In this document: positions 871 through 56,954 of the stretch, piece by piece
Numbering within the stretch: the stretch's first letter is position 1
Layout of the letters: each line of letters begins with the position of its first letter
Source: Parcubacteria group bacterium
GTDB lineage: Bacteria > Patescibacteriota > Minisyncoccia > Phycocordibacterales > Phycocordibacteraceae
Assembly (NCBI GenBank): GCA_028286545.1
Contig: JAQBRJ010000006.1
Span: 1 to 62,652, forward strand
DNA: 62,652 nucleotides
Reading direction: 5' to 3'
The notes under the pieces: generated by a model
Database searches by the model: none
Seen by the model: only the letters and a program-made list of their open reading frames with translations
Told to the model about the DNA's origin: nothing
Program-made: the position numbers and the translations under genes

Positions 871-1500
871 CTATGGATAGAGCTCGAAGGTGGTCAGCGC
901 CGGGTCACAGGTGTTGAATGTGACCCGAAACATCCCGGCTTCCGTCAGATCGAGGTCGTCAAGGAATGCGCCGAGCTCCTCGTTTGCGCCCACGAGAGTC
1001 TCGCCGAGACCTTTCACGGCGAGCTGTATGTATAGCCCGTGCGCCGCGACGAAAATCGTCTGATCGGTTCGGCCCGCGAGGTAACCTGCAAGTGCGCAGC
1101 CAGCTCGCGTACCGATTCGACCAACCGGACTGTCGTTCCAGCCGACCTGGTGCCGCAGATTCAGCGGATGCGTGAGGTATGCGGATGGCGCTGCATTGCC
1201 GACCTCGTCGAAGATCGTATCGATGATCGCACCGTCGGGTCCCTCGGGTGTGTACAGTTCCTTCAGAAGAATGTAACGATCGAGCGGACGCATGGTCGCC
1301 CGTTGCGCCGTTTGAATGGCGCGCTGAGCGATCGAGCTGAACTCGCGGTCGAAGGTGAAAGATTCGAGGACCGGCCGACGCCGAAGGACTTGCTGGATAC
1401 CCTCATTGCTGAGATCCCGAATCAGGTCCCCGCGACGTGTCTTGTGACGAGCTGGATGCGCATTGCCGTGGCGCAAGCCGATTGTCGTTATGATGGCCAT
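871..1500 (-). CDS. Histidine phosphatase superfamily protein (SixA / phosphoglycerate-mutase-like branch)
   Basis: 209-aa ORF with an N-terminal LRHGNA (RHG catalytic motif), then DLIRDLSNEGIQQ, and a second His motif VAAHG. AAGGGAG lies 6 nt upstream of the ATG. G+C is visibly higher than in the neighbours. Confidence 0.7.
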   Translation of the reverse strand: MAIITTIGLRHGNAHPARHKTRRGDLIRDLSNEGIQQVLRRRPVLESFTFDREFSSIAQRAIQTAQRATMRPLDRYILLKELYTPEGPDGAIIDTIFDEVGNAAPSAYLTHPLNLRHQVGWNDSPVGRIGTRAGCALAGYLAGRTDQTIFVAAHGLYIQLAVKGLGETLVGANEELGAFLDDLDLTEAGMFRVTFNTCDPALTTFELYP

Positions 1501-1645
1501 TTCAGGCTCCCTTGTTCAAGTTTCATTGCCTCCCGTCGTGCGACGTAGGTCATGGACAATATAACACTTTAGAGTATTATTGTCAAATACCTCTAATATG
1601 CTATACCTAGCAGTACATTGCGTGCTTTAATTATGAAAAGCAGAT

Positions 1646-2584
1646 ATGGAGCTACTTAAACCCTTCAATCAACTCGGTAAAGACGACGCTGCGATTGCTG
1701 GTGGCAAGGGAGCGTCTCTGGGAGAGATGACCCAGGCTGGCATACCGGTGCCTCCAGGTTTCGTTATCCTCGCTGATGCGTTTGAACGGTTCATCATAGA
1801 GACCGACCTCACAACAGAAATAGATTCGATTCTCGGCAAAGTGAATCATCAGGAGATGCACACAGTTGATCATGCATCGGAGATGATACAAGGATTGATT
1901 TTGAACGTAGAGATGCCAACCGATCTGAAGGAAGAGATCGAGAAATCATTTAAGGATTTGAATACAGAGTTTGTGGCGGTTCGCTCGAGCGCAACGGCGG
2001 AAGACGGAGCGGAAGCAGCCTGGGCAGGACAGCTTGATACCTTCCTCAATACTACGGAGGAAACATTGCTTGAGAAAGTGCGTGAGTGTTGGGCGTCGCT
2101 CTTCACCCCGCGCGCGATCTTCTATCGCTTCGAGAAGGGAATGAATCTCCAGAAGATTTCGGTGGCAGTCGTAGTGCAGAAGATGGTTAATAGCGATACC
2201 GCAGGTATCGCGTTTTCCGTTCATCCTGTTACCGAAGACCATAACCAAATGATCATTGAGGCAGGCTTTGGTTTGGGTGAAGCAGTCGTCTCCGGACAAG
2301 TTACTCCGGACAGCTACGTAGTTACAAAAAGCCCTCGAACAATCGTTGATAAGAATATTAGTGAACAGGCGCAAGGACTGTATCGCAAGGCAGGGGGTGG
2401 TAGTGAATGGAAAGACTTACCAAAGGAGAAGGGTAGTTCTCAAGTGATCACAGACGCACAGATTCTCTCCCTCTCTGAAGTTCTCATCACTATTGAAAAC
2501 CACTATGGTTTTCCCGTAGATACCGAGTGGGCAATGGAGAATGGCGAGCTCTACATTGTGCAGAGTCGTCCAATTACAACGCTT
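1646..2584 (+). other. PPDK_N-type ATP-grasp (nucleotide-binding) domain of the giant ORF
   Basis: aa 1-313 carry all the hallmark motifs of the PEP synthase / PPDK / rifampin-phosphotransferase N-terminal domain. The domain ends at IVQSRPITTL. Confidence 0.85.
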
Positions 2585-5500
2585 CGAGCGTCTTCAACTG
2601 AAAGATCCATGTCCAAAAAGTTTCTGGACGCTATGGGCACTGATGAAATCTTCAAAATTGAAGGAGACTTCATTCCGTTACTCGTATTGATTGATTGGTT
2701 TAACTACCGTGACCAGCAAGGAAATATACAGAATCTCTATCCGGCCATGTGTTTCAAAAGAGACTCTACCGTAAACATCTATTGGAGTCTCACCAAATAT
2801 CGCCACGTATCCAAAGAATTCTTTCAGGCATATTTACAGGGTTCGCTCACCTTACCTGAGTATCAGAAAACATATGATGCTCTCAAGAATGCCATAGATA
2901 GCTTCTATACCTCGTATTATGTTTCTCCTGCTAAGGATGAAAAAGACCTGCTTGCGCGTCTCGATACGGCACATAACTTTCTGCGAGAGATTGACCTTGT
3001 GGCACTTTTCCTCGATGCGCTTGATCAAAAGACGATACGAGAAACGTTAGAAGAACAAAGCATACCGGTCGATCTTTCAAGCATATGGAGAATTTCTCAT
3101 ATTTTGGATACCTATTCATTCCATATAAAAAACAAGGAAGAGATCATTGCACAGCACACAAAACTTCCCGCATCTCTACAATACGTATACTCAAACTACG
3201 TACACATTCTTTCACCCCAAGAAACTATTACGAGAGCCGCGGCAGAAGATATCGATCGACTCAAGAAGGAAGTAGCGGAGAATAAAGCTGAAGCCTCAAA
3301 AAGTGGAGAGCGTAAGCGGGCTGAGGCAGCAAAACTCACGGAGGTTGAACAAAAAGTACTTACCTTTATTGATTACGCTGCAGAACTGCGCGACGACCGA
3401 AAAGCGTTGATTACAAAGTCCGATGTGATGCTTTTCAATCTCGTATCGGACCTTTACAAGCTCTGGGGTGTTCCTCAAGAACTTGTGGATGTGTCGATGG
3501 TAATGGACGTACTCAAGGGTAAAGAACATCTAGAGGCCATGCTTCCTGTGCTCAATGATCGTCTTGGGAAAACGGCAGTCTTCCTTACAAGCGCGCATGA
3601 ATATGAGGAAAATGACACCGAAACTCTAGACGAAGTTGAAGCGGCCTATATGAGGCAGCACACGCCTCACGATGTCACGTCGCTCAAAGGCGAGACAGCA
3701 TCCAGTGGTTTTGTCCGAGGTATCGTGCGAATCATAATCAAGCAGCAAGACTTCGATACGTTCAAAGAAGGGGAAGTGCTCGTTGCTGCAATGACACGCC
3801 CGGAGTTTGTGCCGCTTATGAAAAAGGCAGCGGCTATCGTAACTGATGAAGGTGGTATCACTAGTCACGCTGCAATCGTATCTCGTGAATTAGGAAAGCC
3901 GTGTGTAATTGGTACTCGCGTTGCGACACAAATACTCCACGACGGTGATGAAGTTGAAGTCGACGCTGACAATGGAATCATACGAATCCTAAAGAGTATT
4001 CTCTCCGAAGAAGAGAATAAGAAAGACGCGTTCTTTAATCTCGGTCGTTGGGTTGCTCCTGTTCTGGAATACGAAGCATGGCTGGAATGGTGCAATACTC
4101 CCGAATCGCGTGAAATGGACATTGTTCCGGATTCAGTAACTACGTATGTGCTGGATGGAAATTTCATGCTTGAAGAAGGTGGCGCCTACACTCAACTTAC
4201 TAATACGATCTTGGAAGAGTTTAACCGCGGCGAATATGCGACTGCCCAACACATTAATGAAGTAGCAGAAGCGTTGGCGAACGAATCGAATAATGCGGCT
4301 GACTCATACGGCCAGGCAGCAACACTGAAAGACTTTTTTAATACATTTCCACTCATACAAAGACTTCGCTTCCCCTGGACAGCATGCTTTGCGGTGAGTG
4401 ATGCGGCAGACATATATCTAAAGAATTACGCTGAAAAGAACGGTTTATCAGTAGACTCCTTAAGTTCACAAGTCCCTCAATTAGCGAATCCATTAACGGA
4501 TGATCAAAGAGCGTTGTTTGATTTCAAACAGCAGATTGAAAAATTAGACGCTAACTACAATCTTCAGGATATTAAAGAGATAGATTCGAAGCTTGCGGAA
4601 GGTATAATTAGCTATCAACAAAAGACAGAATACTTTGGGACACATCACTTCTGGGGTGAGCCGCGCACTGAAGAAAAGCTCATGGAGGCAATCAAAGAGG
4701 CTGTCCCAAGCGAGTTACAAGAAGTTGCGGGGCCTATTGATCTTACAGAATTGTTTAGCCTTTTGGCGGATACTACTAAGATTCGCATAGAGTGCGCGGA
4801 GAGTTCATCAAAGCTCGCATATGTATTTCGGTCTGCATTAACTAATCTTGCGAGCACCTATGGACTGGCCTACGAAGATATAATCTTCTTAACCACTGAA
4901 GAACTGCAAGCTCTAGATAAAAAATCTGCTGGTGAGATAGGAGCAATCATTTCCGAACGACAAAAAGGATACGGGCTTTGGAAAGAAGGTGAAACCATAC
5001 AGGTAACCGTAGGTACAGAACTTGAAAGTCAGCTCCAATCGTTTGGACTGAACGTGGACCACGGCGATGTTCAGGAGATCACAGGAAATATTGGCTGCAA
5101 AGGATTCGTGCAAGGAATCGTTGCCATTGTCTTAGTGCCTACGGACAATAAGAAAGTCTTGGATGGAATGATTCTTGTGGCGCCTGAAACTACGCCTGAT
5201 TTCGTTCCTGCCATGGGTAGGGCAGCAGCGTTCGTTACCGATCGTGGAGGAGTGACTTCACATGCTGCAATTATTGCTCGAGAAATGGGCAAGCCATGCA
5301 TCATTGGTACAAAAATAGCGACGCAAGTTCTCAAAGATGGGGATTTGGTGGAAGTCGATGCTAACACTGGGATTGTCAGGCTTCTCTCTAGGCAAAAAGG
5401 ATATACGTATAGTAAGGCGTATACTCGCGAGAATTGTCTTATTGCTATTCAGATTTGGGAAGAACATCAGTGTCATCGTTTAAAGGAGAAGTTTGGCGTG

Positions 5501-8500
5501 GCGGTGCCGCTTTCAATCTTTGATGCGTATCAAGGTGTAGCACGTGTGTATTATCGAGAAGATATTGATGATGCGTGGAGCTCTATTGTCACTGCCAAAG
5601 CTCAAGAAGACAGAAACTTCATACCAGAATTGATGACATGGTATGGAGAACAACTAGATACTCTCGAAGCTATTTGGCACAAGGGAACGCTATCGAGTGC
5701 TAAAGAATTAGATGAGCTTTTTGATCTCGCCTCATGGGCATGGGTAGGATTGTCTATCTCGTACTTCCTCCCGGGCATGGAAGGAATGAGAAAAGAAGAA
5801 CAGGAATTAGGAATGCAGTTGCGAGAACGATCTGCAGACTTCCTCGAGCTTACTGATCACGTAATTCAAGATACGCTTCGCATCTTGTACCCTGCACTCG
5901 GAGATTTAGTGAAATACCTCCGTATTGAGGAAGTTAGATCAGGAGATATTCCGGCCATCGAGATTCTCCGTGAACGAGAAAAGCATTATATCTATTATGA
6001 TTTCAAACTCTACACAAACACGACAATCGATTCACTCCTTAAAGAAAATAATTTCTCCATAGAAGAGGAAGTAGTTCCCACGAATGTTTCAGATATTAGT
6101 GGTCAGACAGCCATGACGGGCATTGCTAAAGGAAAGGTTCGCATCCTACATCGCAAAGCTGATATTTCTTTACTCCAGGATGGAGAGATTTTGGTCACGG
6201 CAATGACCACGCCTGATTATCTTCCCGCAATGTATAAAGCCGCTGCCTTTATCACAGATGAGGGTGGAATCACTTGTCACGCAGCCATTGTCGCTCGTGA
6301 GCTCGGTAAGCCATGTGTCATTGGTACCAAGATCGCAACACAAGTACTGCACGACGGTGATGAAGTTGAAGTGGACGCTGATAATGGAGTGGTCCGTATT
6401 CTCAAAAGTGCGAACACCGAAGCTGTTTTAGTTAAATGTTTCTCTAGAGATCATTCGCTCTTCTATTCATACGTTTGGCGCACCAGTAATTCTGAGAAGG
6501 GGAAGAGGTGGATAGGAACAAATATTGAAGAGGTATTATTTGTGCGACCAGAGGGTCAGGAGGTAGTAGATGTTTATTATTCAGAAAACGAATTTAAACT
6601 CTATGATCGGGCAATCAAGGATAAGATTCTGAGCGATGCACACTGGTTCGCAACCCTCGCAGCTTATTTTGAAAGTGAATGGCAGAAGATACTTCCGTAC
6701 ATACAAAAGAAGGAAATTCTCACACGCCAAGAACTCTCAGAATTTTATGACCATTGGGTTAATTGGTGGGAGCCAATGGCATTCATGATGCAGATTCCTG
6801 AAATTGAGGGAGTTTCTCAAGAGATCAAAGATCAAGCATTTATGCTTCGAGCCGAAACTCAAGAATATTCTGATAGTGGAGACAAGATGTTCCATGCATA
6901 TATGCAGAATGCACATCCTGAACTCTCAAAGTATTTCTCGGTGGTAACTCCTGAGGAAGTGTTTGGTGATACTTTCCCATCCGAATCGATTCTCGAAGCT
7001 CGTTTGGGTGGTTGGTACATGACCAATACTCATTTTGGACTAATCGGAGAATTGCCAAAGGCATTGAAAGAAAGATATTTTGTCCTCGAAGTCACACCAG
7101 TAAATGACACTACTGAATTAAAAGGACAGAGTGCATATAAAGGAATCGTTCGTGGCACGGTGCGCGTTCTAGCACGCCATGATCAAATATCAGAAGTACA
7201 AAAGGGTGAGATTCTTGTTACTGCCATGACCACGCCTGATTTCTTTCCGGCGCTTGAAAAGGCTTCTGCTTTCATAACGGACGAAGGAGGAATTACCTGT
7301 CATGCGGCAATCGTTGCTCGAGAAATGCAGAAGCCTTGTATTATCGGCACTAAATTTGCCACCCAGATTCTTAAAGATGGTGATGAAGTAGAAGTCGATG
7401 CAGACAATGGGGTAGTCCGTATTTTAAAGACAGCTGCAAGCGAAAGAATTGAGTTTATCAAAGAATACACGCGCGACACGACCCTTATCATTCAGCAGGC
7501 TTGGAGTGTCGTGCTTAAAAAGCATCGAAGCGAACTCGGCTTGCATGAATACGACAATCAAACGCTCGTTCTTCATTACCTCCATGACGGCGTGATAGAG
7601 GTATGGGAGAACCATAACTGGACACCTGCATTGATGAATGAAATCCTAAAGAGGAATACGGAAAGCGACACTACATTCAATGACCACATTGAAAAGTTCC
7701 TCAAGGGAATAACATTTTTAAAACCATATTGGGAACAAGGTTTCGTTAGTGATGCAGCAGAACTATCTTCCATAGTCGATCACGTATTTGAAACGATGTA
7801 TCACTTTGACTGGATGTACTATCCTGCGCTCGATGATCGTACACCATTGCCTATTCGAAACAGGGCTCGTGAGCTCCGAGATCAAGATATATTCTTCGAT
7901 CAAACTGACCGCTTCATTAGAAAGAGCCTACTGGCCATCTATCCTAATCTTCAAGGATACGAACAGTGCATACTTCGAGATGAAATTACTGCGCCGCCCT
8001 CTCTTGAAATACTTCGTACGCGTAAACAACACTTTATAGCAATGGGTGATGACGCTTCATATACTGGGACCATAGAGGAATACCAAAAAGAGCATCCCGA
8101 GATGCATTTTGCTGTCGATGCAGCTCCAATCCAAACGGCTACGTTAACCGGTCAGATCGGTAATAAAGGATATGCGAAAGGCATTGTTCGTATTATGAAG
8201 CGCAAAGAACAGATTCCCGATGCTCAAGAAGGAGACATTATTGTGTCGACCATGACTACTCCGGATTTCATTCCGGCCATGCAAAAGGCAGCAGCTATTG
8301 TTACGGACGAAGGAGGGATTACGTGTCATGCAGCAATAGTGGCTCGCGAAATGAACAAGCCGTGTGTGATAGGTACGAAATTTGCCACGCAACTCCTTAA
8401 AGATGGAGACTTCGTGGAGGTCGATGCAGACAACGGGGTAGTAAGAAAGATTGATAGGATTAGCTTCAAGAAATCGTATTCTCGAGATACCACATTGTTT

Positions 8501-10981
8501 ATGCAGGAGCTCTGGGCTAAAGGACTTATTGAACTCCCTGAAGCAAAATTTGGATGGAAGAATCCATATCTCCCGCTCGTAGCTCATTACGTTAATGATG
8601 GGGTTGTTGAGATATGGGAACACCAAGAAGCAATTTCGTGGCTCCTTGACCGGTTACTCCAGGAGAATAAGAAAGGTTCGGCTTTTTTGGAAGGCATCTT
8701 TAAAGAATATAAGGCACTCTTGAAGAAACTAAAGAAATTTCATAATAAGGAATCTCTATCAACCAAAGAGGCTGAAGAGTATGTAGATCTCATATACGAT
8801 GCTGCCTTCGCTATGACCTTGTTCTTTTACACGGGCTCAGACGAGCGAAGTCCAAAGGACGCACTCGAAATTTCTGTCAAAGCCCGTGAGATAGAAGACT
8901 TCTTTGCTGGTAATGATGTATTCGTAAGAAAGATCATTACCAATACGGCACACATTTCTGAAGAATTGGCAGGAGTCGTTCTTGCTGAAGAATTGAGTGC
9001 AAATGCGATACCTTCTTCTGAGACTCTTCAAAATCGACTTAAGAACTATCTTCTCATTGATGGGATGGAACGATGGACGAGTTCTCTCAAAGATTTTTCT
9101 ATAGCGTTCCCTGAATACATTTTCTTAGAGACAGAGGTAGAAGCGACCACTGAACTTCGTGGTCAATCAGCCTATAACGGAGTTGTTCAAGGCTCCGTAC
9201 GAATTGTTCGTAAACAGAGCGATATGGCAAAAGTTCTTGAAGGCAATATTCTCGTTTCGCCTATGACTACTCCTGATTTCCTTCCTGCCATGCTGCGAGC
9301 GGCAGCATTCGTAACGGATGAAGGAGGTATCACGTGTCATGCGGCAATTGTTGCTCGCGAGATGAAGAAACCTTGCGTAATAGGTACAAAAATTGCCACA
9401 CAGATTTTAAAGGATGGAGACGAAGTAGAGGTAGACGCAATCAACGGAATCGTTCGAATATTGAAATCGAACAGTGTAGTACGATCGCTCAGCAAAGAAG
9501 ACATTGTTATCGGTGATTGGGAATTTGAAGCGCAGCAGCGCGGTGAGCAACCAATCTTCCTCTGCGATCTCTTTAGTCGTGCCTTGGTTGGCATGATTCA
9601 TGAAATGACAGGAAAGAACGAATACTACGACTATCTCTTTACCGATTCGGACAAGCTCAACCACAGTCCCAAGCATCGAGATATCGTGTTGAACAAGACG
9701 CGCGAGGATATGCTCGATCCAGCAAAGAGAAAGGAATTCCTTCGGGGTTCAATAGAGATTCCTATGAGCTTCAATGCTGTTGCTGATGAAATTAATGAAA
9801 AGGTCAATGATTCTGTTTCAAACAAAGAGCTCGCACGACTCTGGAGAAATATGGATCGTGATTTCCTCAAGGTGATCCCATGGTTCTACTACCCGTGGTA
9901 TGTCTCGAAAGAGAATATGCTCACTGACTTTGTTAAAGCTGGGTTAGAGAAGCATCGTACTGAGATTGAAAAGGTCTGCGATATGGACGAAGCGCTTTTG
10001 GCGATAGTATTCCCGATAAAGAAAACGAACTTCCAGCTTGAGCAAGATGAGATGCTCGGACTCGTAACCATTGCTGAAGAGAATTCTGACTTTACAAACG
10101 ACGCCGTATTTAAGCAGCATGCTGCAGAGTACCTCAAGAAATATGACTACCTCACGACGTTCATACTTTCGCCGATACTCCCAATGACCTATGAACAACT
10201 CGTTGAACGGGTCAGTCAGAATGTAAAAGAATCATTCAAAGACAACTATGAGATTCAAAAGGAGGCAACACTCAAGAATCAGGAACGCGCAGAGCAGATT
10301 CTGAAGATAGTTTCTGATGACAACGAGATCATGCCGTGGATTGAGGACTCACGAGAACTTGGCTACGTGCTTACGGCAGGAATTGAAGAAGCGTATATGG
10401 CGTCTGCTCGCTATCTACCGTTTATACAATTCGTTGCAAAGCGAATCGGTGTGACATTTGAAGATACGAAATATCTTCTCTCTAATGAGATTGCCACCGC
10501 GCTAGAAGAAGATAAAAAGATTCCAGCAGAACTCATTGATGAGCGTCGTGACGGCTTTGTTCTCATGATGAAAGACGGCGTGCAATACACACTCTTTGGA
10601 AAGAAGGGTCATGAACTTAGCGCATGGATTGATAGCGAACTAAATAAGGTAGATGCATCGATCACAGAATTTACGGGGCAGCGTGCGTGTAAGGGCTTTG
10701 CAAAAGGGAAAGTTCGAATTGCAACCACTCCCGCACAAGCACATCTTCTTCAGGAAGGGGAGATACTCGTGTGTCCCATGACAAACCCTGACTACGTGCC
10801 TGCTATGCGCCGCTCTGCAGCTATCGTCACGGACGAAGGCGGATTGCTTTGCCACGCAGCAATTATGTCTCGTGAGTTCAACAAGCCCTGTATCATCGGC
10901 ACAAAGATTGCAACGCAGCTTTTGAAGGATGGAGATATGGTTGAGGTTGACGCAGACAAGGGAATTGTAAGAAAGCTATAA
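1646..10981 (+). CDS. Giant (3,111 aa) ATP-grasp / poly-swivel phosphotransferase: one PPDK_N domain plus seven PEP-utilising-enzyme mobile phosphohistidine domains
   Basis: Single uninterrupted ORF. The N-terminus carries [39 protein letters not shown] and VQSRPIT. There are seven copies of GG(I/V/L)(T/L)(S/C)HAAI..RE..KPC(V/I)IGT....L.DGD.VEVDA. No PEP/pyruvate TIM-barrel motifs are present. Confidence 0.92.
   Translation: [3111 protein letters not shown]
3683..3997 (+). repeat. Swivel phosphohistidine domain copy 1 of 7 (catalytic His codon 3866-3868, aa 741)
   Basis: [15 protein letters not shown]...[69 protein letters not shown]. Confidence 0.9.
5078..5392 (+). repeat. Swivel phosphohistidine domain copy 2 of 7 (His codon 5261-5263, aa 1206)
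   Basis: [15 protein letters not shown]...[67 protein letters not shown]. Confidence 0.9.
6095..6409 (+). repeat. Swivel phosphohistidine domain copy 3 of 7 (His codon 6278-6280, aa 1545)
   Basis: [15 protein letters not shown]...[69 protein letters not shown]. Confidence 0.9.
7118..7432 (+). repeat. Swivel phosphohistidine domain copy 4 of 7 (His codon 7301-7303, aa 1886)
   Basis: [15 protein letters not shown]...[69 protein letters not shown]. Confidence 0.9.
8144..8458 (+). repeat. Swivel phosphohistidine domain copy 5 of 7 (His codon 8327-8329, aa 2228)
   Basis: [15 protein letters not shown]...[67 protein letters not shown]. Confidence 0.9.
9155..9469 (+). repeat. Swivel phosphohistidine domain copy 6 of 7 (His codon 9338-9340, aa 2565)
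   Basis: [15 protein letters not shown]...[69 protein letters not shown]. Confidence 0.9.
10670..10978 (+). repeat. Swivel phosphohistidine domain copy 7 of 7 (His codon 10853-10855, aa 3070); the protein ends with it
   Basis: [15 protein letters not shown]...[67 protein letters not shown] followed by the stop codon. Confidence 0.9.
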
Positions 10982-10992
10982 ATACTATAATC

Positions 10993-11583
10993 ATGATCAA
11001 AGCCGTCATATTCGACCTCAACGGAGTCTTTATTCATAGCGAGAGATTGAGTGATCGCTTTGAACGCGACTTCGGCGTTCCCGTATCTGAATTTCTTCCG
11101 AAGCTTGGAGAAATAATGGACTTCGTGCGGAAGCCTGGTGCTGAGCCGGCGTTCAGGTATTGGGAACCTGCTCTGAAAGAATGGAATATATCCATGACAG
11201 AAGAGGAACTCTGGAAGTACTGGTTTGACGCTGAGATTCCTTCGGAAGAAATGATCGCTCTTGCACGGGAGTTGAAAGAGAAAGGAATAAAAGTCATAAC
11301 CCTTTCCAATAACTTTAAGGAGCGCGCAGAATACTACGGTCACTACCCTTGGATGCAGGATGTCATGGATAAGACGTATTTCTCATGGAAGACTGGGTTG
11401 GTGAAGCCAGATGTGGAAGCGTGGAAACTGGTTCTGTCAGATTTCGCACTTGAGCCGAGCGCGTGCCTCTATTTTGACGATCAACAAAAGAATCTGGATG
11501 CAGCTGAGAGTGTAGGAATACAATCGTGTATGTTTAAAAGTCCTGAAGATACGCGTACAATCATTGAGAATAGTATTTCATAA
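10993..11583 (+). CDS. HAD-superfamily hydrolase / phosphatase (subfamily IA-like)
   Basis: 196 aa. Motif I is AVIFDLNGV (second Asp replaced by Asn). TLSNN and the C-terminal YFDDQQKNLDAA fit HAD motifs II-IV. The gene starts 12 nt after the giant ORF stop. Confidence 0.7.
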   Translation: MIKAVIFDLNGVFIHSERLSDRFERDFGVPVSEFLPKLGEIMDFVRKPGAEPAFRYWEPALKEWNISMTEEELWKYWFDAEIPSEEMIALARELKEKGIKVITLSNNFKERAEYYGHYPWMQDVMDKTYFSWKTGLVKPDVEAWKLVLSDFALEPSACLYFDDQQKNLDAAESVGIQSCMFKSPEDTRTIIENSIS

Positions 11584-13163: not shown

Positions 13164-13604
13164 ATGCAAATTAAAGAGTTGGGACACATTGTGCTGTACG
13201 TGACGAATGTCACGACGATGGCAAACTTTTATCGCGATACATTAGGCTTCAAAGAAATTGCACGTGAGCCTGGAATAGCGCTCTTTTCTTCCGGACGTAC
13301 GCATCACGAGATGCTTCTTATTGAAATAGGAGGTCGCCCAAAGCCCCAGCACGCACCCGAGCCAGGGTTGTATCACATCGGTTTCAAAATAGGAGATAGT
13401 ACTGAAGATGTGAAACAGGCATTCAAAGAACTCACACAGGCTGGCGTTACCATTATAGGCACGACTGACCACGGCGTAACGCATTCGTTGTATATTCTCG
13501 ATCCAGACGGCAACGAACTTGAACTGTATGCTGATGTGTCTGATGCTTGGAAGACTGACCCACAGGCGGTCCTTACTCCTGCACGTAGATTGGATCTCTC
13601 GTAG
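13164..13604 (+). CDS. VOC family protein (glyoxalase / bleomycin resistance / extradiol dioxygenase fold)
   Basis: 146 aa. LGHIVLYVTN...FYRDTLGF and HHEMLL...LYHIGF...SLYILDPDGNELELY are typical VOC beta-alpha-beta-beta-beta modules. Confidence 0.75.
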   Translation: MQIKELGHIVLYVTNVTTMANFYRDTLGFKEIAREPGIALFSSGRTHHEMLLIEIGGRPKPQHAPEPGLYHIGFKIGDSTEDVKQAFKELTQAGVTIIGTTDHGVTHSLYILDPDGNELELYADVSDAWKTDPQAVLTPARRLDLS

Positions 13605-13643: not shown

Positions 13644-15392
13644 ATGACCCTACTCTTTATTTCGTTTGTAGCAGGACTCCTCACGGTCCTTGCCCCATGT
13701 GTTCTTCCGCTTCTACCGGTTATTATCGGCGAGTCGATAAGCGGGAAGCCGAGCCGTAAGCGCGCGGTTGTAACTATCGCATCGCTGGGTATTTCGCTCT
13801 TCCTTTTTACATTCCTGCTCAAGGTTTCGACAGTACTCATTCATGTGCCGCTTGAAGCGTTGTCGATAGTGTCCGGAGCGTTGCTTATTATTTTTGGATT
13901 ACTCACTGTCTTTCCGCAGTTATGGGATCACTTTGGTCTTGCGAATGCGTTGAACAAAAGCTCGAACCGCGTGATGGGGCAGGGCTTTATGAAGCAAAGT
14001 TTGGTTGGAGATATTATCGTTGGCGCTGCACTGGGTCCGGTATTTTCAAGTTGCAGCCCGACATACTTCCTTATTCTCGCCACGGTGCTTCCGGTGAGTT
14101 TGGCTATGGGTGTTGCATATCTCACGGTCTATATCTTTGGATTGTGTCTTGCTCTCTTTGCTATTGCGGTGCTTGGACAGCACTTGGTTATGAAGCTCGG
14201 CATTGTTTCGAATCCTGAAGGATGGCTTATGCGTTCGATTGGTATGTTATTTATCATCATCGGCTTACTCGTTATTTCAGGCATTGATAAAAAGATTGAG
14301 GCCAGCGTGCTTGCGCACGCTGGCATATTCGATGTAACGAGGATTGAGCAGCACCTTCTTACCGCGGGAAGCTCGGGTGGAACAGCAAATTCAATTGTGT
14401 ATGGGGAACAGCTTACTCCTGAACAGAAGGCAGCGAAGTACACAAAGGCGCCAGAACTCGTAAAACCTGATGGATATTTGAACACTGACGGGCAGCCGAT
14501 AACCATCGGACAATTCAAAGGAAAGAAAGTCGTTCTTATCGATTTCTGGACCTACAGCTGCATCAACTGTCAGCGAACCATTCCATATTTGAATCAGTGG
14601 TATGCAAAGTATAAAGACCAAGGGCTTGAGATAATTAGCGTGCATACGCCCGAGTTTGCCTTTGAGCACGAGCAGACAAATGTGGCAGCCGCACTCAAGC
14701 AGTTCGGTATTGAATACCCCGTAGTGCTCGATAACGAATATCAGACCTGGAATGCCTTTGGGAATCAGTTTTGGCCGCGTGAATATTTGATTGATATCGA
14801 TGGCTATGTCGTGCACGATCACGCAGGGGAAGGGGAATACGATGTGACGGAAAAGGCAATACAAGCTGCGCTCGCGGAGCGAGCGCAGCGTCTAGGTACG
14901 GATCCATCAATGATTGCATCAGGCACGGTCTCCATTGCTGACCCGAATCTTCAAGAAGTGCAGAGCCAAGAAACGTACTTTGGCTACAATCGTAACAAAT
15001 ACCTGGCGAATGGAACTCCAGGCCAAAGCGGAACCCATACCTATTCATTCCCGACGGCTACGGTACCGAACTTACTCTACTTACAGGGCACGTGGAATAT
15101 TGGAAAGGAATACGCAACGGCTTCCGCAGACGCGCACATCAAGTTTAGCTATGGTGCACACGATGTGTATTTCGTGGCGAGTGCCGGGGTGCCAGTCTCA
15201 GTGACCGTACTTCGTGACGGAGTTCCGGTAGGCACTATGGCAGGAAGTGACGTTGATCCAAAGACGTCCACGGTAACTATCGGAAGTCAGCGATTGTACC
15301 GACTCATTCACGACACCAGCGCCGGCGCTCACACTATTGAACTCATCATCCATGGTAGCGGCTTGAACGCGTATACCTTTACATTTGGTTAA
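13644..15392 (+). CDS. dipZ: DipZ-type protein: CcdA/DsbD-like membrane domain fused to a thioredoxin-like domain and a C-terminal DipZ domain
   Basis: TM domain with LAPCVLPLLP and SSCSPTYF cysteines, and a thioredoxin-like WTYSCINCQRTIP (CxxC). The ATG is at 13644; the ORF track extends to a GTG at 13626. Confidence 0.8.
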   Translation: MTLLFISFVAGLLTVLAPCVLPLLPVIIGESISGKPSRKRAVVTIASLGISLFLFTFLLKVSTVLIHVPLEALSIVSGALLIIFGLLTVFPQLWDHFGLANALNKSSNRVMGQGFMKQSLVGDIIVGAALGPVFSSCSPTYFLILATVLPVSLAMGVAYLTVYIFGLCLALFAIAVLGQHLVMKLGIVSNPEGWLMRSIGMLFIIIGLLVISGIDKKIEASVLAHAGIFDVTRIEQHLLTAGSSGGTANSIVYGEQLTPEQKAAKYTKAPELVKPDGYLNTDGQPITIGQFKGKKVVLIDFWTYSCINCQRTIPYLNQWYAKYKDQGLEIISVHTPEFAFEHEQTNVAAALKQFGIEYPVVLDNEYQTWNAFGNQFWPREYLIDIDGYVVHDHAGEGEYDVTEKAIQAALAERAQRLGTDPSMIASGTVSIADPNLQEVQSQETYFGYNRNKYLANGTPGQSGTHTYSFPTATVPNLLYLQGTWNIGKEYATASADAHIKFSYGAHDVYFVASAGVPVSVTVLRDGVPVGTMAGSDVDPKTSTVTIGSQRLYRLIHDTSAGAHTIELIIHGSGLNAYTFTFG

Positions 15393-15438
15393 ACAGCCTC
15401 TCCGCGGGTCAGTGATATACTGACACTAAGAGCTCCGT

Positions 15439-16269
15439 ATGACTGAAGACGTTACTTATCTCATCCACCGCACTACTGAATTCTTCCGTATACGTTTTAT
15501 TGCGCATGCGAACGGTATCGCCAAGGCGTCCCTGATTCTTATTGCCGGTATTATTGGCTACTACCTCACAGCAGCCCTCATACGAAAGATCTTGCTGAAG
15601 AGTCGAGTGCAGGACGCATTTGCTCGCATACTCGTCGACAATGTCTACAAGACCATTGTTATTGTCATTACGATAATTACTGCAGCAAATCAGCTCGGTA
15701 TTAATATCACGGCGCCGCTCGCAGGTCTTGGTATCGCTGGTATCGCTATTGGTTTCGCTGCGCAGGATTCGTTGTCGAATATCATTGCTAGCTTCCTGAT
15801 TTTCTTTGATAAGCCATTTCGCGTAGGGGACTACATTACGCTTGGTGAGTACTATGGCCGTATTGAGCGCATTACTATGCGTAGCACGCGCATTCGTACG
15901 CAGGACAATACCTATGTGGTAATTCCGAATCAGAAAATTATTAACGATGTGCTTATCGATCACACAACCAATGGCGACACACGCATTGTGATACCGGTGA
16001 GTATTGGATATGAGGCGTCAATTGATGCCGCTCGTGAAGCTATCCTTGCACAGGTCTCACTTATTGAAGGAGTTGCACAGAATCCTGCTCCCGATGTGGT
16101 GGTAAATACGCTTGGAGATTCGGGAGTGAATTTGCTTGTACGTGTTTGGATTAAAGATGCGTCCATTGAACGTCGAACATTCTTTAGAACTGTTGAAACT
16201 ACAAAGCGAGCACTTGATGCTGCGGGCATCTCCATACCGTATCCGCATGTAGAAATCGTGAAGAAATAA
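15439..16269 (+). CDS. Mechanosensitive ion channel (MscS family)
   Basis: 276 aa with TM helices followed by FDKPFRVGDYITLGEYYGRIERITMRSTRIRTQDNTYVVIPNQKI, the MscS beta-domain signature. Confidence 0.85.
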   Translation: MTEDVTYLIHRTTEFFRIRFIAHANGIAKASLILIAGIIGYYLTAALIRKILLKSRVQDAFARILVDNVYKTIVIVITIITAANQLGINITAPLAGLGIAGIAIGFAAQDSLSNIIASFLIFFDKPFRVGDYITLGEYYGRIERITMRSTRIRTQDNTYVVIPNQKIINDVLIDHTTNGDTRIVIPVSIGYEASIDAAREAILAQVSLIEGVAQNPAPDVVVNTLGDSGVNLLVRVWIKDASIERRTFFRTVETTKRALDAAGISIPYPHVEIVKK

Positions 16270-16337
16270 TACTGCGCATTGCGGTATACGGTCGCTCTCT
16301 TACGACGTCTGTAGTAAAATGGAGTATTCGTTTCCGT

Positions 16338-18083
16338 ATGCCTAAACCTCCTAAATCTACAGCACCAGACACTTCTCCGAGCTTGCTCGCACTCCTTCGC
16401 CCTTATACGGGATGGGTGATATTGCTCGTGGTGCTTACCGTAATAGGAAGCGCCTTGAACCTCGTAATTCCACAAATCTTTGCACGAGCGATTGACTCAT
16501 ACACGGCAGGAACCCTTAACCTTACGGTAACGCTGGTGTGGTTTGGTATCGTTGCAGCCGGTATCTTTTTGATGAATGCACTTCAGGGCATTGTGCAGAC
16601 GTATGCCTCTGAAATGGTTGCGCGCGACCTTCGTATGAAAGTCGCCGCTGCCATATCACTTCAAGAATATGCAGCAATTGAGGCGCTTACTCCTTCTAAA
16701 CTCCTTACGAATCTCACCTCAGATGTAGACGCAGTGAAGACGTTCGTTGCGCAAGCGATAGCGTCCATCATCTCTTCTGTCTTTATCATCATTGGTGCTT
16801 CTGCACTTTTGCTCTATTTGAACTGGAAGCTTGCGCTCGCCGTGCTCCTCATACTTCCGTTCATAGCGGGCACCTTCTATATTGTGCTCGGTCGTGTACG
16901 CAAACTCTTCCGCCAAGCTCAGGAAATGATCGATCGACTCAATAAGGTTATTAATGAAAGTATTCTTGGCGCTGCGCTTGTACGGTTACTCCATTCACAA
17001 CAGCGCGAGTACGAAAAGTTCATCGATGCAAACGATGGAGCACGCGGGATCAGTATGCAGATCTTGAAGCTCTTTGCCTCCATGATTCCTGCTATTACGT
17101 TCCTTACGAATCTCGCAACACTCACGATCCTCTTGCTGGGCGGCAGCTTTGTTATTCATAGTTCCATGACGCTTGGACAATTCGCCGCATTCAATAGCTA
17201 CCTCGGTATTCTTATCTTCCCAATTATCATTATTGGTTTTATGAGCAATGCCATCGCACAGGCACAGGCTTCGTACGGTCGCATTGCTCAAGTACTTACG
17301 GCAACCGTTCGTCCAGATACGGGCACAATCACAAAACCACTTACGGGCGAGATTACGGTCAAAGACCTCTCACTAACCTACAAAGAAAATCATGTGCTCA
17401 AGGATGTGTCGTTTGAAATCAAAGCGGGTACGAAGAACGCAATCATCGGACCAACGGCTGCTGGCAAGTCGCAGCTTTTCTATATCATGACCGGCCTTCT
17501 TGCACCTACGGCAGGCGTTGTTGAGTTTGATGGATATCCAATTGCTGAATATGCAAAGCACGATTTGCATGCGCAGATTGGGTTTGTCTTCCAAGATAGC
17601 GTGCTCTTTAACCTTACGCTTCGTGAAAATATTGCCTTTAGCGATCGTGTCGCAGACGAAGACCTTGCAAAGGCTATCGACACGGCTGAACTCCACGACT
17701 TTATCAATCAATTACCCAAGGGCTTGGATACCGTGGTGTCTGAGCGAGGTACGTCACTTTCCGGTGGGCAGAAGCAGCGCGTGATGCTTGCGCGTGCATT
17801 AGCGCTTAATCCAAAGATTCTTTTGCTCGATGACTTCACGGCACGTGTTGATCCTGCGACAGAAGAAAAGATTCTAGGGAATGTTTTGAAGAATTATCCT
17901 GATCTTACCCTCATCTCTATTACGCAAAAGATTGCGCCGGTTGAAAAGTACGACCAGATACTTCTTCTTATGGAAGGGGAAGTGCTTGGTCGTGGCACGC
18001 ACGCAGAGCTTATGAGCACGAGCCCAGAGTACGTGCAGATATTTGATTCGCAAAAGAGCACGGAAGAGTTTGAGACCGCATAA
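16338..18083 (+). CDS. ABC exporter, fused permease/ATPase subunit (heterodimer partner 1)
   Basis: 581 aa. Six-TM exporter domain then an NBD with GPTAAGKS, LSGGQKQR and LLLDDFT. Confidence 0.9.
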   Translation: MPKPPKSTAPDTSPSLLALLRPYTGWVILLVVLTVIGSALNLVIPQIFARAIDSYTAGTLNLTVTLVWFGIVAAGIFLMNALQGIVQTYASEMVARDLRMKVAAAISLQEYAAIEALTPSKLLTNLTSDVDAVKTFVAQAIASIISSVFIIIGASALLLYLNWKLALAVLLILPFIAGTFYIVLGRVRKLFRQAQEMIDRLNKVINESILGAALVRLLHSQQREYEKFIDANDGARGISMQILKLFASMIPAITFLTNLATLTILLLGGSFVIHSSMTLGQFAAFNSYLGILIFPIIIIGFMSNAIAQAQASYGRIAQVLTATVRPDTGTITKPLTGEITVKDLSLTYKENHVLKDVSFEIKAGTKNAIIGPTAAGKSQLFYIMTGLLAPTAGVVEFDGYPIAEYAKHDLHAQIGFVFQDSVLFNLTLRENIAFSDRVADEDLAKAIDTAELHDFINQLPKGLDTVVSERGTSLSGGQKQRVMLARALALNPKILLLDDFTARVDPATEEKILGNVLKNYPDLTLISITQKIAPVEKYDQILLLMEGEVLGRGTHAELMSTSPEYVQIFDSQKSTEEFETA

Positions 18084-21034: not shown

Positions 21035-21658
21035 ATGAAACTCTACTATTCACCGGGCGCGTGCTCACTCTCGCCTCATATTGTTGCTCGTGAAGGGAAG
21101 CTTCCCGTTGAACTTTCGCGGGTTACGTTTGATGGCGCTGTACGCACAACTGCTGAAGGCGAAGACTTCTTTGTCGTAAATCCAAAGGGAGGGTATGTGC
21201 CTGCACTTCGTTTGGACTCAGGTGAAGTCCTTGCTGAAGGCGTTGCCATCATTCAATACCTTGCCGATCAGTCGTCTGAAACTCTTACTCCAGAGAAGGG
21301 TTCGATGGACTACTATCGCATGCTTGAGTGGCTCACGTTTATTAGTTCGGAGATTCATAAGGGATTCTCGCCGCTTTATAACCCCGCTATTACTGACGAA
21401 GCTAAGGAAGCGCAGATCAAGAAAATCTTTGGACGACTTACGTTTGTCGAAGCTGAACTTGGTAACCACTCATATTTGATTGGAGATGCGCTCACACTTC
21501 CTGACGCGTACCTTTATACGATTCTTCGCTGGTCGAAGAAGTTTGCCATGGATCTTTCTGGGCATCCAAACATCAGTGCATTCATGGCTCGCATGGACGC
21601 ACGCGAAGGGGTGAAGGAAGCACTGAAAGAGGAAGGACTGGAGGCCTTTACGGCGTAA
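21035..21658 (+). CDS. gstA: Glutathione S-transferase, beta class (GstA-like)
   Basis: 207 aa. MKLYYSPGACSLSPHI, NPKG.VPAL, EGVAIIQYLAD, EWL.FISSEIHKGFSPL, DAYLYTILRW and AFMARM align along the full length with E. coli GstA as I recall it. Confidence 0.85.
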   Translation: MKLYYSPGACSLSPHIVAREGKLPVELSRVTFDGAVRTTAEGEDFFVVNPKGGYVPALRLDSGEVLAEGVAIIQYLADQSSETLTPEKGSMDYYRMLEWLTFISSEIHKGFSPLYNPAITDEAKEAQIKKIFGRLTFVEAELGNHSYLIGDALTLPDAYLYTILRWSKKFAMDLSGHPNISAFMARMDAREGVKEALKEEGLEAFTA

Positions 21659-21675
21659 ATAGGTTTGTTGGTATA

Positions 21676-21703
21676 AGAGCCGCGGCCATGGCCGCGGCTC
21701 TTT
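21676..21703 (+). terminator. Intrinsic terminator after the GST gene
   Basis: Perfect GC-rich palindrome AGAGCCGCGGCC-AT-GGCCGCGGCUCU followed by UUU. Confidence 0.55.
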
Positions 21704-21717
21704 GCTATACTTGTGGC

Positions 21718-22140
21718 ATGTGGATGATCTACGCAGCAGGGTCAGCGATTGCCGCAGCCCTCGTATCGATATTTGGAAAGGTAGGACTTCGTGAAGTGGA
21801 TCCTACTCTTGCGACCATTATTCGCGGTGTCGTGATGGGGCTGTTGCTGGTTATTGCTGGGTTTGCGCTTAAGAAATTCAACACACCAGCACTTTCTGCA
21901 ATTCACGGGCGTGCCTGGCTTTTCATTTTGCTTTCGGCCGCAGCTGGCGCAGCGTCGTGGGTATTGTATTTCACGGCGCTTAAGCTTGGACCTGCCGGTG
22001 GCGTTGCTGTTATAGACAAGATGTCGGTAGTGCTCATTATTATTCTCGCAGCGTTCGCGTTTGGCGAAGCATTCACACTGCGCTCTGCTGCTGGCGTTAT
22101 ACTTACTATCGCAGGCGCAGCACTTATCGTATTTAAATAA
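21718..22140 (+). CDS. Small EamA-like (DMT superfamily) membrane transporter
   Basis: About 140 aa with four TM helices and a single EamA-type repeat (FGKVGL..., [14 protein letters not shown]). I place the start at ATG 21718 because the track start 21688 lies inside the terminator hairpin. Confidence 0.65.
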
Positions 22141-22148
22141 TCATTCTT

Positions 22149-22637
22149 ATGGAAAAGAAAGCATATCTTGCGGGCGGATGTTTCTGGGGACTCGAAGACT
22201 TGTTCCGAACTCAGCCAGGAATCATTTCAATAGACGCCGGCTATACGGGAGGTGAGAATGAAAATCCAACGTACGAGAACCATCCCGGCCATGCCGAAGC
22301 ATTGGAGATTGTATACGACGATGAGAAGACAGACTTCAAGCATCTGCTCGACTTCTTCTTTCAGATTCACAACCCAACGACGTTGAACCAACAGGGAAAT
22401 GATCGTGGCACTTCGTATCGTTCGGCCATCTTCTACCAGAACGAAGACGAGAAGAAACAGGCTGAAGATTTCATTGCGATCGTGAACGACTCGAAACGCT
22501 GGAAAGATCCGGTAGTTACAACCCTTGAGCCCTTCACCAAGTTTTGGAAAGCCGAAGAGTACCATCAGGACTACCTCCAGAAGAATCCTGGGGGCTATAC
22601 ATGCCACGCCATTTATTTCGATTCGTATTTGAAATAA
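22149..22637 (+). CDS. msrA: Peptide-methionine (S)-S-oxide reductase
   Basis: 162 aa. [15 protein letters not shown] active-site motif, [17 protein letters not shown] and EYHQDYL. Confidence 0.92.
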
Positions 22638-22721
22638 AGCTGAATATCACACAAGCTGACAAGCCTAACGTTGAGGTGTATATTCAATAAGCCTTTACAA
22701 CGAATAAAAGGAGCTCTTTAC

Positions 22722-23453: not shown

Positions 23454-23561
23454 CTATCTCATGTGCTCACACACCAAACACCTGTCGGCTCACCCTGGCA
23501 GGTTTTTCTTTTAGGTATGACGTTTAGGCTATACTATATTTCTATTCATAACCTATTTAAT

Positions 23562-54772: not shown

Positions 54773-55503
54773 TTGGGAGTCATACTTTGGTATACTCTAC
54801 CCATGGGAAACGAATCTCCATTTATTATCGAAGATTTTCAAGGCTTCAAAGTTGTTCGAGATGATCTATACGAAGGCGGTACAAAACGACGTGCTTTTAG
54901 CCGTTTGATCGATTCAATTACGGAAGATGAATTGGTGTATGCCTGCGACTACTATGGCGCAGCCGCCTATGCTATTGCTCTTACCGCTCAAGAGGCAGGG
55001 AAGAAAGTCATGCTCTTTTATTTATCTCCGAAGCAAGAAACTGCTCTATTTAATAAAGCGGTAAGTCTTCCAAACGTTACGTATGAAATCGTGGAAGAAG
55101 CAAAGACTCAAATAGAAGCGAGTATACGTGCAAAGGAATATGCAAAAGAACATAACGCAAATTCCTACCCATAGGATTAGACTTCCCAGAGTTTGGAGAA
55201 GAGCTAGAGAAGGTAGTTAAGTCTGCAAGTATAAAAGCTCCAGAGATATGGGTTATGGGCGGATCTGGGACTCTAGGTAGAGCGTTACAAAGAGCGTATC
55301 CAAATATCCCCGTAAATATTGTGAGCGTTGGAACGGCAAACTTTAACGGTGGAGATAATAAAGTGTACGAAGCTCCAGAAGCATTGGATGAGGAGGCAGA
55401 GATCAAGCCGCCCTACAATTCTTCTTCTCACTACGACGCAAAGACCTGGAGGTTTGTCCTAGAGCACGCCAAGCCTGGCTCTTATATTTGGAACGTAGCC
55501 TAG
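54773..55503 (+). pseudogene. Fold-type-II PLP-enzyme-like gene (ACC deaminase / D-cysteine desulfhydrase family-like) split by a frameshift
   Basis: ORF 54773..55174 (VRDDLYEGGTKRRAF...) stops at TAG 55172-55174. The reading continues in another frame, open from 55156 through the track ORF 55255..55503 (..IGLDFPEFGEE...VMGGSGTLGRALQ..). A 1-nt shift within 55156-55172 would fuse them. Confidence 0.5.
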
Positions 55504-55517
55504 ACCTCTTAAAAAAT

Positions 55518-56954
55518 ATGAACACTTCTGAATTCACATCACCAGTACTAAAAGACTTTGACCCAGAAGGGTATCACTTCTTCGGTCTGTGGAAGCAGAA
55601 TCTATTTTCAGCATGTTTTTGGGCAGGCTGTTATAGCAAAGAGGTTGCGGATAGGCTGGGAATTGAGACAGAAGAATCTGGAGTTGCGGTACTTACAGAA
55701 GGTAATTTCTTTATCAAGGATTCAGAACTCGCAAACATAAGGAAGCAAATTAGAGAGAAGATTGAAACCAAAGATGAGGCTTTCTTCAAAAATATGGTTA
55801 AGGTCTCCGATGATCATTTTAAAGAAGCTGTTGCGTTTACTGAAATATTCAAAAATAAAGAGCTAACACCAGAAACTTTTGAAGAGTATCTTGTTCTGGG
55901 AAAGAAAATTACTTTTCTTTGGATGCTGGGAGCAGAGCAGTTTTCTGAACATGCTCAAGAAAAATTAACTGAAGTTGCTCTAGCTGAGTCATTTCCCGTA
56001 GAACGTATACCTGAGATCATTCCAAAATTTGATACTCCACTCAATCAGCAGCATAGAGAAATGATTGAGCTCAAAAAAGAGGTCGGCAGTCTTTCACTCG
56101 AAGAAATAAAAAAGAATAAAGAACTCTACTCAAAAATCGAAGATCATACCAAACGTTTTGGATGGATTGAGATCGCAAACCTCGTAGGTGATCCTCTTAC
56201 GGTTGAAAGATTGTACGAGCAAATTATTCATGCAAAAGATGAACATGCTCAAGAAGCCAAGAACCTGCCTACGATTTCAGAGAACCTCGCATTTCATGCA
56301 AGATGTGTGAGTTATTGTGGCTACCTGCGACAAGCAGGAGCTGAATATTTCTTTATGATGTCAGAAAAGGCCCAACCCTATTTAATGGCTCTTGGAGAAA
56401 AATTTGGACTTTCATATCCTGAATTTTTACTACAAATTGATGTTGAGATAATCGAAACGTTGAAAGGAAATATCAGTGCAGATATTTTGAAAGCTAATGT
56501 TAAACGCAGAGAAGCAATGGACATAATCCTGTTTGCCGGGAAAGGAGAGGAGGTTTTCTTTACCGAGGAACCTGAAGATATTGAGAAGCTGAAAAAGCTA
56601 ATGCTTCCTCAAGCTGATCTCACGAGTAAGGAAATAAAAGGTCAGATTGGTAACAAGGGAACATATACTGGTCCAGCAAAGATAATCATGAACACTCATG
56701 ACTTTGCCAAAATGCAGACTGGCGATGTGCTTGTCTCAACCATGACAACACCGGATTTTGTGGTGCTTATGCATAAGGCAGGAGCCATCGTAACTGACAT
56801 CGGAGGCATGCTCTGCCACGCCGCGATTGTCTCAAGAGAAATAAATAAGCCTTGTGTCATAGGTACGAAATTTGCCACACAGATTCTTAAGGACGGTGAT
56901 CTCATAGAGGTAGATGCAGATAAGGGAGTAGTCACTATTCTCGAAAGACCATAA
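55518..56954 (+). CDS. Free-standing helical-domain plus swivel phosphohistidine-domain protein (no ATP-grasp, no PEP-binding domain)
   Basis: About 478 aa from ATG 55518. C-terminal IKGQIGNKGTYTGPAKII...MTTPDFVVLMHKAGAIVTDIGGMLCHAAIVSREINKPCVIGTKFATQILKDGDLIEVDADKGVVTIL, with the His codon at 56817-56819. Confidence 0.88.
   Translation: MNTSEFTSPVLKDFDPEGYHFFGLWKQNLFSACFWAGCYSKEVADRLGIETEESGVAVLTEGNFFIKDSELANIRKQIREKIETKDEAFFKNMVKVSDDHFKEAVAFTEIFKNKELTPETFEEYLVLGKKITFLWMLGAEQFSEHAQEKLTEVALAESFPVERIPEIIPKFDTPLNQQHREMIELKKEVGSLSLEEIKKNKELYSKIEDHTKRFGWIEIANLVGDPLTVERLYEQIIHAKDEHAQEAKNLPTISENLAFHARCVSYCGYLRQAGAEYFFMMSEKAQPYLMALGEKFGLSYPEFLLQIDVEIIETLKGNISADILKANVKRREAMDIILFAGKGEEVFFTEEPEDIEKLKKLMLPQADLTSKEIKGQIGNKGTYTGPAKIIMNTHDFAKMQTGDVLVSTMTTPDFVVLMHKAGAIVTDIGGMLCHAAIVSREINKPCVIGTKFATQILKDGDLIEVDADKGVVTILERP

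Follow-up and report, generated by a model that had tools for sequence, protein, structure and literature searches.

The stretch analyzed here (the window) comprises 62,652 nucleotides (nt) of contig JAQBRJ010000006.1, positions 1 to 62,652 of the forward strand, in assembly GCA_028286545.1 of a Parcubacteria group bacterium. A single giant gene of 9.3 kb, equal to about 1.4% of the 671-kb genome, encodes one ATP-grasp head followed by seven modules, each made of a spacer and a swivel domain with a catalytic histidine. [quoted passage not shown] Modules 3-6 are, judged by their sequence relationships, four anciently diverged subtypes of one spacer family (the S family), joined via module insertion and deletion and gene fusion, with no duplication inside the gene. 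The array is laid out as follows, in the order head-A-B-S3-S4-S5-S6-L7.

1646..10981, plus strand: giant ORF of 3111 amino acids (aa), ATP-grasp head and seven spacer-plus-His-swivel modules.
1646..2614, plus strand: PPDK_N-type ATP-grasp head, aa 1-323 (Pfam E 2.6e-101), the sole PPDK_N in the 671-kb genome.
2615..3991, plus strand: module 1, long spacer of type A (aa 324-678) and swivel 1 (aa 679-782, His741, T-S-H).
3992..5386, plus strand: module 2, long spacer of type B (aa 783-1143) and swivel 2 (His1206, T-S-H).
5387..6403, plus strand: module 3, short S-family spacer (aa 1248-1482) and swivel 3 (His1545, T-C-H).
6404..7426, plus strand: module 4, short S-family spacer (aa 1587-1823) and swivel 4 (His1886, T-C-H).
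7427..8452, plus strand: module 5, short S-family spacer (aa 1928-2165) and swivel 5 (His2228, T-C-H).
8453..9463, plus strand: module 6, short S-family spacer (aa 2270-2502) and swivel 6 (His2565, T-C-H); structure modeled.
9464..10978, plus strand: module 7, long spacer (aa 2607-3007) and swivel 7 (His3070, L-C-H).

The frame is single and unbroken, with an even guanine-plus-cytosine (GC) content throughout. Pfam places PPDK_N (PF01326) at aa 17-323 and finds seven copies of PEP-utilizers (PF00391), while the PEP/pyruvate TIM barrel PF02896 was not found in the giant ORF; by NCBIfam, parts of it match phosphoenolpyruvate (PEP) synthase and RPH/PigC-type proteins. The catalytic histidines lie at aa 741, 1206, 1545, 1886, 2228, 2565 and 3070 (codons at nt 3866, 5261, 6278, 7301, 8327, 9338 and 10853), which gives a His-to-His pitch of 465, 339, 341, 342, 337 and 505 aa, or 1395, 1017, 1023, 1026, 1011 and 1515 nt. 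The initial annotation had reported the codon spacings of 1017, 1023, 1026 and 1011 nt for swivels 2-6, and recomputation returned identical values; its module lengths of 339, 341, 342 and 337 aa match the measured pitch. With the swivel limits set as His-62 to His+41 and the remainder taken as spacer, spacers 1-7 are 355, 361, 235, 237, 238, 233 and 401 aa long. The swivel motifs are, in order, GGITSH, GGVTSH, GGITCH in four copies and GGLLCH, with the histidine intact in all seven and threonine at His-2 in six of the seven. The residues before the histidine are thus as first described (T-S-H in swivels 1-2, T-C-H in 3-6 and L-C-H in 7); they had been read as marking at least three swivel subtypes, which makes too much of a position that is variable family-wide, with T, L, M, V, I or A at His-2 and C or S at His-1. 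In an alignment of 112 modules, every one has the catalytic histidine itself.

Spacers 3-6 (233-238 aa) are homologous from end to end, with pairwise identities of 21-27% and blastp E values from 1e-22 to 3e-3. A hidden Markov model (HMM) built from stand-alone proteins outside the window matches spacers 6, 5, 3 and 4 at 1e-87, 1e-69, 7e-29 and 7e-17, respectively, and gives no match to spacers 1, 2 and 7. The mutual homology of the short spacers, on which the earlier proposal had been staked, was therefore upheld by both blastp and the foreign HMM. The residues K7, R11, D/E12, W/Y55, R145, E180, P187, L192 and R195, invariant or nearly so in the S family, are kept in all four short modules. 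Among the landmarks named by the initial annotation, every short module has the N-terminal (Y/F)(S/T)R(D/E)..L.....W, DGV.E.WE occurs in modules 5 and 6 only, and the R(E/D)..DFF..TD block is common to the short modules only in part. Counted back from the end of the spacer, R145 is 88 residues away, the same distance as R666 in RPH, and the residue after R145 is often E; this likeness was not used as evidence.

The S domain is a family of ~230 aa, unnamed so far and defined in this analysis; Pfam and NCBIfam searches with each spacer matched no family. A profile of the four short spacers recovered 589 representative clusters among 1.84 billion. The best 150 representatives include 84 S+swivel proteins, 12 S+S+swivel proteins and six head+S+swivel proteins (~660 aa, nothing further), the rest being larger fusions, and a swivel follows the S domain in every case. 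The S+S+swivel proteins (~560-590 aa; 12/150), for example P0200, P0202, P0203 and P0207, carry two tandem short S domains on one swivel; P0010 spacer 2 is listed with them. Spacers 2 and 7 are distantly related (22% identity, E 6e-5) and spacer 1 has no sister relative. An hhalign comparison of short with long spacer clusters gave 93% probability over the N-terminal half for one cluster and 77% over the C-terminal part for another. These weak and partial matches hint that the long spacers may be S-like domains with an insertion, which is not established.

The divergence among the modules is old, as the initial annotation had held: identity among the swivels of the giant ORF is 56-73% at the protein level and 57-69% at the DNA level, and third-codon-position identity between them is 22-43%, which is saturated. 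The further proposal of an old tandem duplication within the gene as the source of the four short modules, possibly with local gene conversion keeping patches such as one 23-mer, agrees with modules that are adjacent, in register and homologous, and with the best match of swivel 3 in the sampled set, which is its neighbor swivel 4 (73%). Foreign relatives are nevertheless closer than sisters. Spacer 1 is nearest to P0009 spacer 2 (74%; swivels 94%), spacer 4 to P0002 spacer 3 (73%; swivels 87.5%, whole module 76%), spacer 5 to P0004 spacer 3 (40%), spacer 6 to P0004 spacer 4 (60%; whole module 66%) and spacer 7 to P0002 spacer 4 (86%; swivels 89%); module 2 has orthologs in P0005, P0004 and P0008 (39-46%), and module 3 is 58% identical to a stand-alone Minisyncoccia protein. 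In a maximum-likelihood tree of 91 short modules (quick search mode), modules 3, 4, 5 and 6 are placed apart from one another, each among foreign sequences in a clade of its own with strong support; module 3 is grouped with stand-alone proteins from two bacteria, one of Minisyncoccia and one of Berkelbacteria, and from an archaeon of Micrarchaeota. A single clade for the four is rejected by the approximately unbiased (AU) test (log-likelihood difference 660, p = 1.6e-5). Relatives also hold the orthologous modules in other orders and positions, or as stand-alone genes, and duplication within the gene is accordingly regarded as very improbable.

The 23-mer on which local gene conversion had been suggested does occur where it was first placed, only at 3938 and 6350, and both copies encode the same peptide, HDGDEVEV. 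When synonymous codons were resampled with the gene's own usage and the longest in-register run over the 21 swivel pairs was recorded, a run of at least 23 nt appeared in 8.9% of trials (P = 0.089), so that gene conversion is not required. The swivels are moreover not homogenized within the protein but follow their own spacers: each shares the foreign partner of its spacer, at 78-94% identity, as against 56-73% among sister swivels. That spacer and swivel have the same foreign partner indicates that the spacer-plus-swivel module is the unit of inheritance and that concerted evolution has not taken place within the protein.

The same comparisons bear on the assembly. The giant protein was seen on one contig only, and its module set looks as if put together from two blocks, one P0004-like (B, S5, S6) and the other P0002-like (S4, L7), as a chimeric ORF or a collapsed or expanded repeat might produce. 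The modules, however, share at most 23 identical nt in register and the swivels are only 57-69% identical in nucleotides, a similarity so low that collapse or mis-joining is unlikely. The 9.3-kb frame is intact and of even GC, and similar proteins with 5 to 9 swivels are found in many independent assemblies. An assembly artefact is hardly credible as the source of the array.

A length-matched search recovered 72 giant relatives that carry 2-9 swivels; those with a name come from Paceibacterota, Parcubacteria, Woesearchaeota and Nanoarchaeota. Their spacer lengths are bimodal (~220-280 and ~340-420 aa) and fall into many sequence clusters. A short-module query gave more than 5000 matches, of which the best 120 are nearly all stand-alone ~340-aa proteins labeled 'phosphohistidine swiveling domain-containing protein'. 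The gene contexts of relatives and of 79 further loci, taken from named genomes, form a continuum. At the split extreme, the head is a gene of its own (ATP-grasp only, 311-350 aa), with as many as ten genes of one module each on the same strand; intermediate loci have 1, 2, 3, 4 or 5 modules fused behind the head; and at the fused extreme stand proteins with seven modules (the ORF in the window and P0006) or eight (a 3479-aa Woesearchaeota protein). The search also returned P0067-P0072, proteins of 4,700-5,000 aa with a PPDK_N and two partial swivel-like stretches (e.g. at ~aa 2,100 and 4,000), which clearly belong to another giant family.

Selection on the spacers was assessed against the P0002 ortholog, since synonymous sites between sister modules are saturated and the ratio of nonsynonymous to synonymous rates (dN/dS) between those modules is not meaningful. 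The proportion of nonsynonymous differences (pN) is 0.08-0.17 and that of synonymous differences (pS) 0.64-0.81 overall and 0.64-0.70 for spacers 4 and 7. The low pN against a near-saturated pS shows the spacers to be under purifying selection; the ratios, ~0.1 or lower for these two spacers and near 0.02 for the head, are rough only, as dS against P0002 is also near saturation. The head is 89.5% identical in aa to that of P0002.

An AF2 model of module 6, built from 111 homologs, has a predicted local distance difference test (pLDDT) score of 96.7 and a predicted template modeling (pTM) score of 0.91 over both domains, and this pTM across spacer and swivel predicts fixed docking of the two. 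The spacer modeled alone reached a pLDDT of 96.5. In the predicted S fold, N- and C-terminal beta strands and a few flanking helices surround a bundle of five long helices. An RPH-like fold was considered for the short spacer, as RPH is the top Foldseek match of the whole module (E 4e-11, template modeling (TM) score 0.33), and was rejected because the spacer-only model matched nothing; its alignment with the Enzyme I N-terminal domain had an E value of 2.9. The short spacer is, as modeled, a domain without a detectable solved relative and not detectably like the rifampin-binding domain. With a confidently predicted fold and conserved charged residues, the S domain offers a clean target for structure and substrate discovery.

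The proposed mechanism is modeled on RPH (PMC4844700) and on the split systems HpeHI, CreHI and PpsAB (PMC12167813). The single ATP-grasp head would use ATP to (pyro)phosphorylate every module's swivel histidine, acting in cis in the giant ORF and in trans where the operon is split, and each loaded swivel would dock on its own spacer. The charged spacer residues K7, R11, D12, R145, E180 and R195 (module numbering) would then form a second phosphotransfer site, and the variable rest of the spacer would select a module-specific acceptor. Up to seven acceptors, or eight with a stand-alone module elsewhere on the contig, could in this way be phosphorylated, at the cost of ATP -> AMP + Pi. We infer phosphotransfer from the head to all swivels, an acceptor role for the spacers and differing module specificities. 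The assignment is favored because minimal head+S+swivel proteins exist, the S domain is obligately paired with a swivel, each array has one head, the diversified spacers are under purifying selection, and the two-domain docking model is confident.

Several points weigh against this one-head, many-acceptor assignment. One head would have to reach seven swivels across about 2,800 residues. The spacer-only model found no PDB match better than E 1.1 (TM at most 0.32) and RPH was not among the matches; in profile searches against PDB sequences only the swivel of the short module aligned (with RPH and PEP synthase), and the long spacer 7 profile gave no match. As neither the short-spacer model nor these profiles match the rifampin-binding domain, the proposed acceptor role is based on position and architecture. 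The gene neighborhood is only weakly informative: clustering across 84 loci showed that, besides a His_Phos_1 subfamily, only generic genes such as ABC ATPases and TrmB-type regulators recur.

The source genome (670,858 bp in 29 contigs, 84% complete) holds one PPDK_N, the head of the giant ORF, and eight swivels. The initial annotation had likewise counted eight; seven of them lie in the giant ORF as supposed, and the eighth is in a separate gene.

55488..56954, plus strand: stand-alone eighth module of 488 aa, long spacer and swivel (G-G-M-L-C-H), 44 kb from the giant gene.

The spacer of this module shares 31-34% identity with the head-adjacent first spacers of P0003, P0004, P0009 and P0025. 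A DHA2-family major facilitator superfamily (MFS) efflux gene (53214-54752, plus strand) ends ~0.7 kb upstream, with a 133-aa ORF (54773-55174) between the two.

In a survey of 19 genomes of the genus (G000-G018), arrays were found in three: the source genome G000 (7+1 swivels), G003 (four in one 1994-aa protein) and G002 (three, split). Most other genomes of the genus have one canonical ~800-aa PEP synthase with PF02896 and no array, and six of the 19 have no swivel match. Array-bearing relatives keep one array head (one head to four swivels in G003, one to 12 in G024). G003 has the array head only, and G002 has both an array and a canonical PEP synthase. Both flanks of the P0002 locus (L012) show synteny with the window, eight flanking genes having 46-90% aa identity. 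The array of that locus has the order head-A'-x-S4-L7-y, and after it come a module of 364 aa in a gene of its own and a phosphatase-like gene of 274 aa. The different module set at this syntenic locus indicates that whole modules come and go within an orthologous locus. The 364-aa module (15087-16181, plus strand) and the gene of the His_Phos_1 subfamily (16188-17012, plus strand) lie between the giant and HAD genes of L012, and both are missing from that position in the window.

These genome data bear on a reverse use of the array, in which the modules would strip phosphoryl groups from a range of scavenged high-energy phospho-compounds, with ATP then formed by the head out of AMP + Pi; if true, this would amount to modular substrate-level phosphorylation for ultra-small symbionts. 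Both half-reactions are reversible in principle, and HpeH alone moves phosphate between substrates (PMC12167813). No PF02896, the barrel of canonical PEP synthase, PPDK and Enzyme I, was found in the 84%-complete genome, so that this 671-kb genome shows no canonical PEP synthase TIM barrel. A 2026 preprint, which counts 'PEP synthase' (K01007) and notes that such annotations persist in DPANN orders without glycolysis, leaves the direction of the reaction open and does not consider architecture (10.64898/2026.05.13.725050). Most phosphoesters, however, have too low a group-transfer potential, and a distribution as patchy as 3/19 genomes within the genus is odd for core energy metabolism, which makes reverse use improbable. 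A nearby and less radical version would have the array act as an inactivating kinase for xenobiotics or antibiotics, with seven or eight specificities.

Next to the giant gene the following features were annotated.

871..1500, minus strand: divergent His_Phos_1 (histidine-phosphatase superfamily) gene, Pfam E 2e-8, 145 nt upstream of the giant gene.
1553-1580, plus strand, and 1586-1558, minus strand: overlapping divergent promoter-like sites in the 145-nt gap 1501-1645, consensus matches only.
10993..11583, plus strand: HAD-family hydrolase gene, 12 nt past the giant stop, in the same position in L012 (80% aa identity).

The back-to-back sites in the gap are the best two among the sigma-70-like matches over 13 kb, where the count of such matches is not above chance; they suggest that the phosphatase and giant genes may be divergently transcribed and possibly co-regulated. 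An HAD gene is also found near the P0006 array. The gene at 871-1500 is a member of the His_Phos_1 subfamily that is present in 14 of the 84 array loci (17%), where 16 of its 18 genes directly adjoin a module gene, often inside the array, and the 671-kb genome has only three His_Phos_1 matches. PADLOC, run on the modules and their neighbors, matched no defense model, and no DUF299 regulatory kinase, sought on account of the His-2 threonine, was found in the genome. The contig is rich in genes of detoxification or resistance type (13164-13604, 16338-18083, 21035-23993, 26989-27657 and 53214-54752), and Pfam and NCBIfam confirm on it a glyoxalase/bleomycin-resistance-fold protein, an ABC exporter and an MFS efflux pump. 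MOSC, NUDIX, PF06983, pirin and VanZ genes lie around the P0002 and P0006 arrays.

A dedicated His_Phos_1 subfamily directly beside module genes, in 14/84 loci, is also what would be expected if the spacers did not bind small-molecule acceptors and the modules were phosphocarrier or adaptor units handing phosphate on to proteins or among themselves, resembling the phosphotransferase system (PTS) or a phosphorelay, or served to regulate partners, with the adjacent His_Phos_1 protein as a SixA-like reset phosphatase. PTS Enzyme I has the same swivel fold, and the spacer fold matches no known small-molecule-binding domain. Such a role is nonetheless considered rather unlikely, as the ~660-aa head+S+swivel proteins look like self-contained enzymes, dozens of diversifying spacer families under purifying selection fit many ligands better than a single relay, and the neighborhoods examined showed neither HPr-like nor EII-like partners.

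To our knowledge, the swivel-histidine dikinases (PEP synthase, PPDK, RPH, HpeHI) are one-head, one-acceptor enzymes, and full-text literature searches returned no description of multi-swivel or one-head-many-module dikinases. Like the giant ORF, RPH-Lm (PDB 5FBS, 5FBT, 5FBU, 5HV1; PMC4844700) has a PPDK_N head, a variable middle and a His-swivel, and lacks a TIM barrel; the heads match at E 6e-83, and the ~660-aa head+S+swivel relatives have the same domain order as RPH. The giant ORF differs in having seven units of middle domain and swivel per head, whereas RPH and the small-molecule dikinases have one, and its short spacer of 233 aa has no detected sequence or fold similarity to the ~430-aa rifampin-binding domain of RPH; the threonine at His-2 in six of its swivels is a further difference. 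Both the ATP-grasp head and the G-G-x-x-x-H swivel of RPH/HpeHI-type dikinases are present in the giant ORF, but the short spacer model and the long spacer 7 profile revealed no homologous acceptor domain, and no homology of the acceptor domains to their counterparts in HpeH or RPH could be detected.

In HpeHI, CreHI and PpsAB the ATP-grasp domain is on a separate protein and the complex is only transient (PMC12167813), whereas in the window all parts are fused in one polypeptide. The split relatives, with a ~311-350-aa ATP-grasp protein and an acceptor-plus-swivel gene in the same operon, resemble HpeI + HpeH (PMC12167813); they have one ATP-grasp gene with up to 10 or more differing modules, as compared with one in HpeHI, and the modules of the family are 330-520 aa long as compared with 71 kDa for HpeH. 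PEP synthase (PpsA, EC 2.7.9.2; PDB 8A8E, 2OLS) is the best sequence match for head and swivels, both for the head-bearing residues 1-790 (2.6e-101 vs 6e-83 for RPH) and for the swivel-bearing module profile A1 (2e-39 vs 6e-20), but it has one swivel and a PEP-utilizers_C TIM barrel where the giant ORF has seven swivels and no barrel. Of PTS Enzyme I, which combines a swivel with an HPr-binding helical subdomain and a PEP-binding TIM barrel, only the swivel matches, and the barrel was found neither in the giant ORF nor in the 84%-complete genome. Annotation of such genes as 'PEP synthase' may distort metabolic reconstructions of CPR and DPANN lineages. If the one-head, many-acceptor assignment is correct, the giant ORF would represent a combinatorial kinase architecture without described precedent, one whose modules have been rearranged, separated and joined in CPR bacteria and DPANN archaea.

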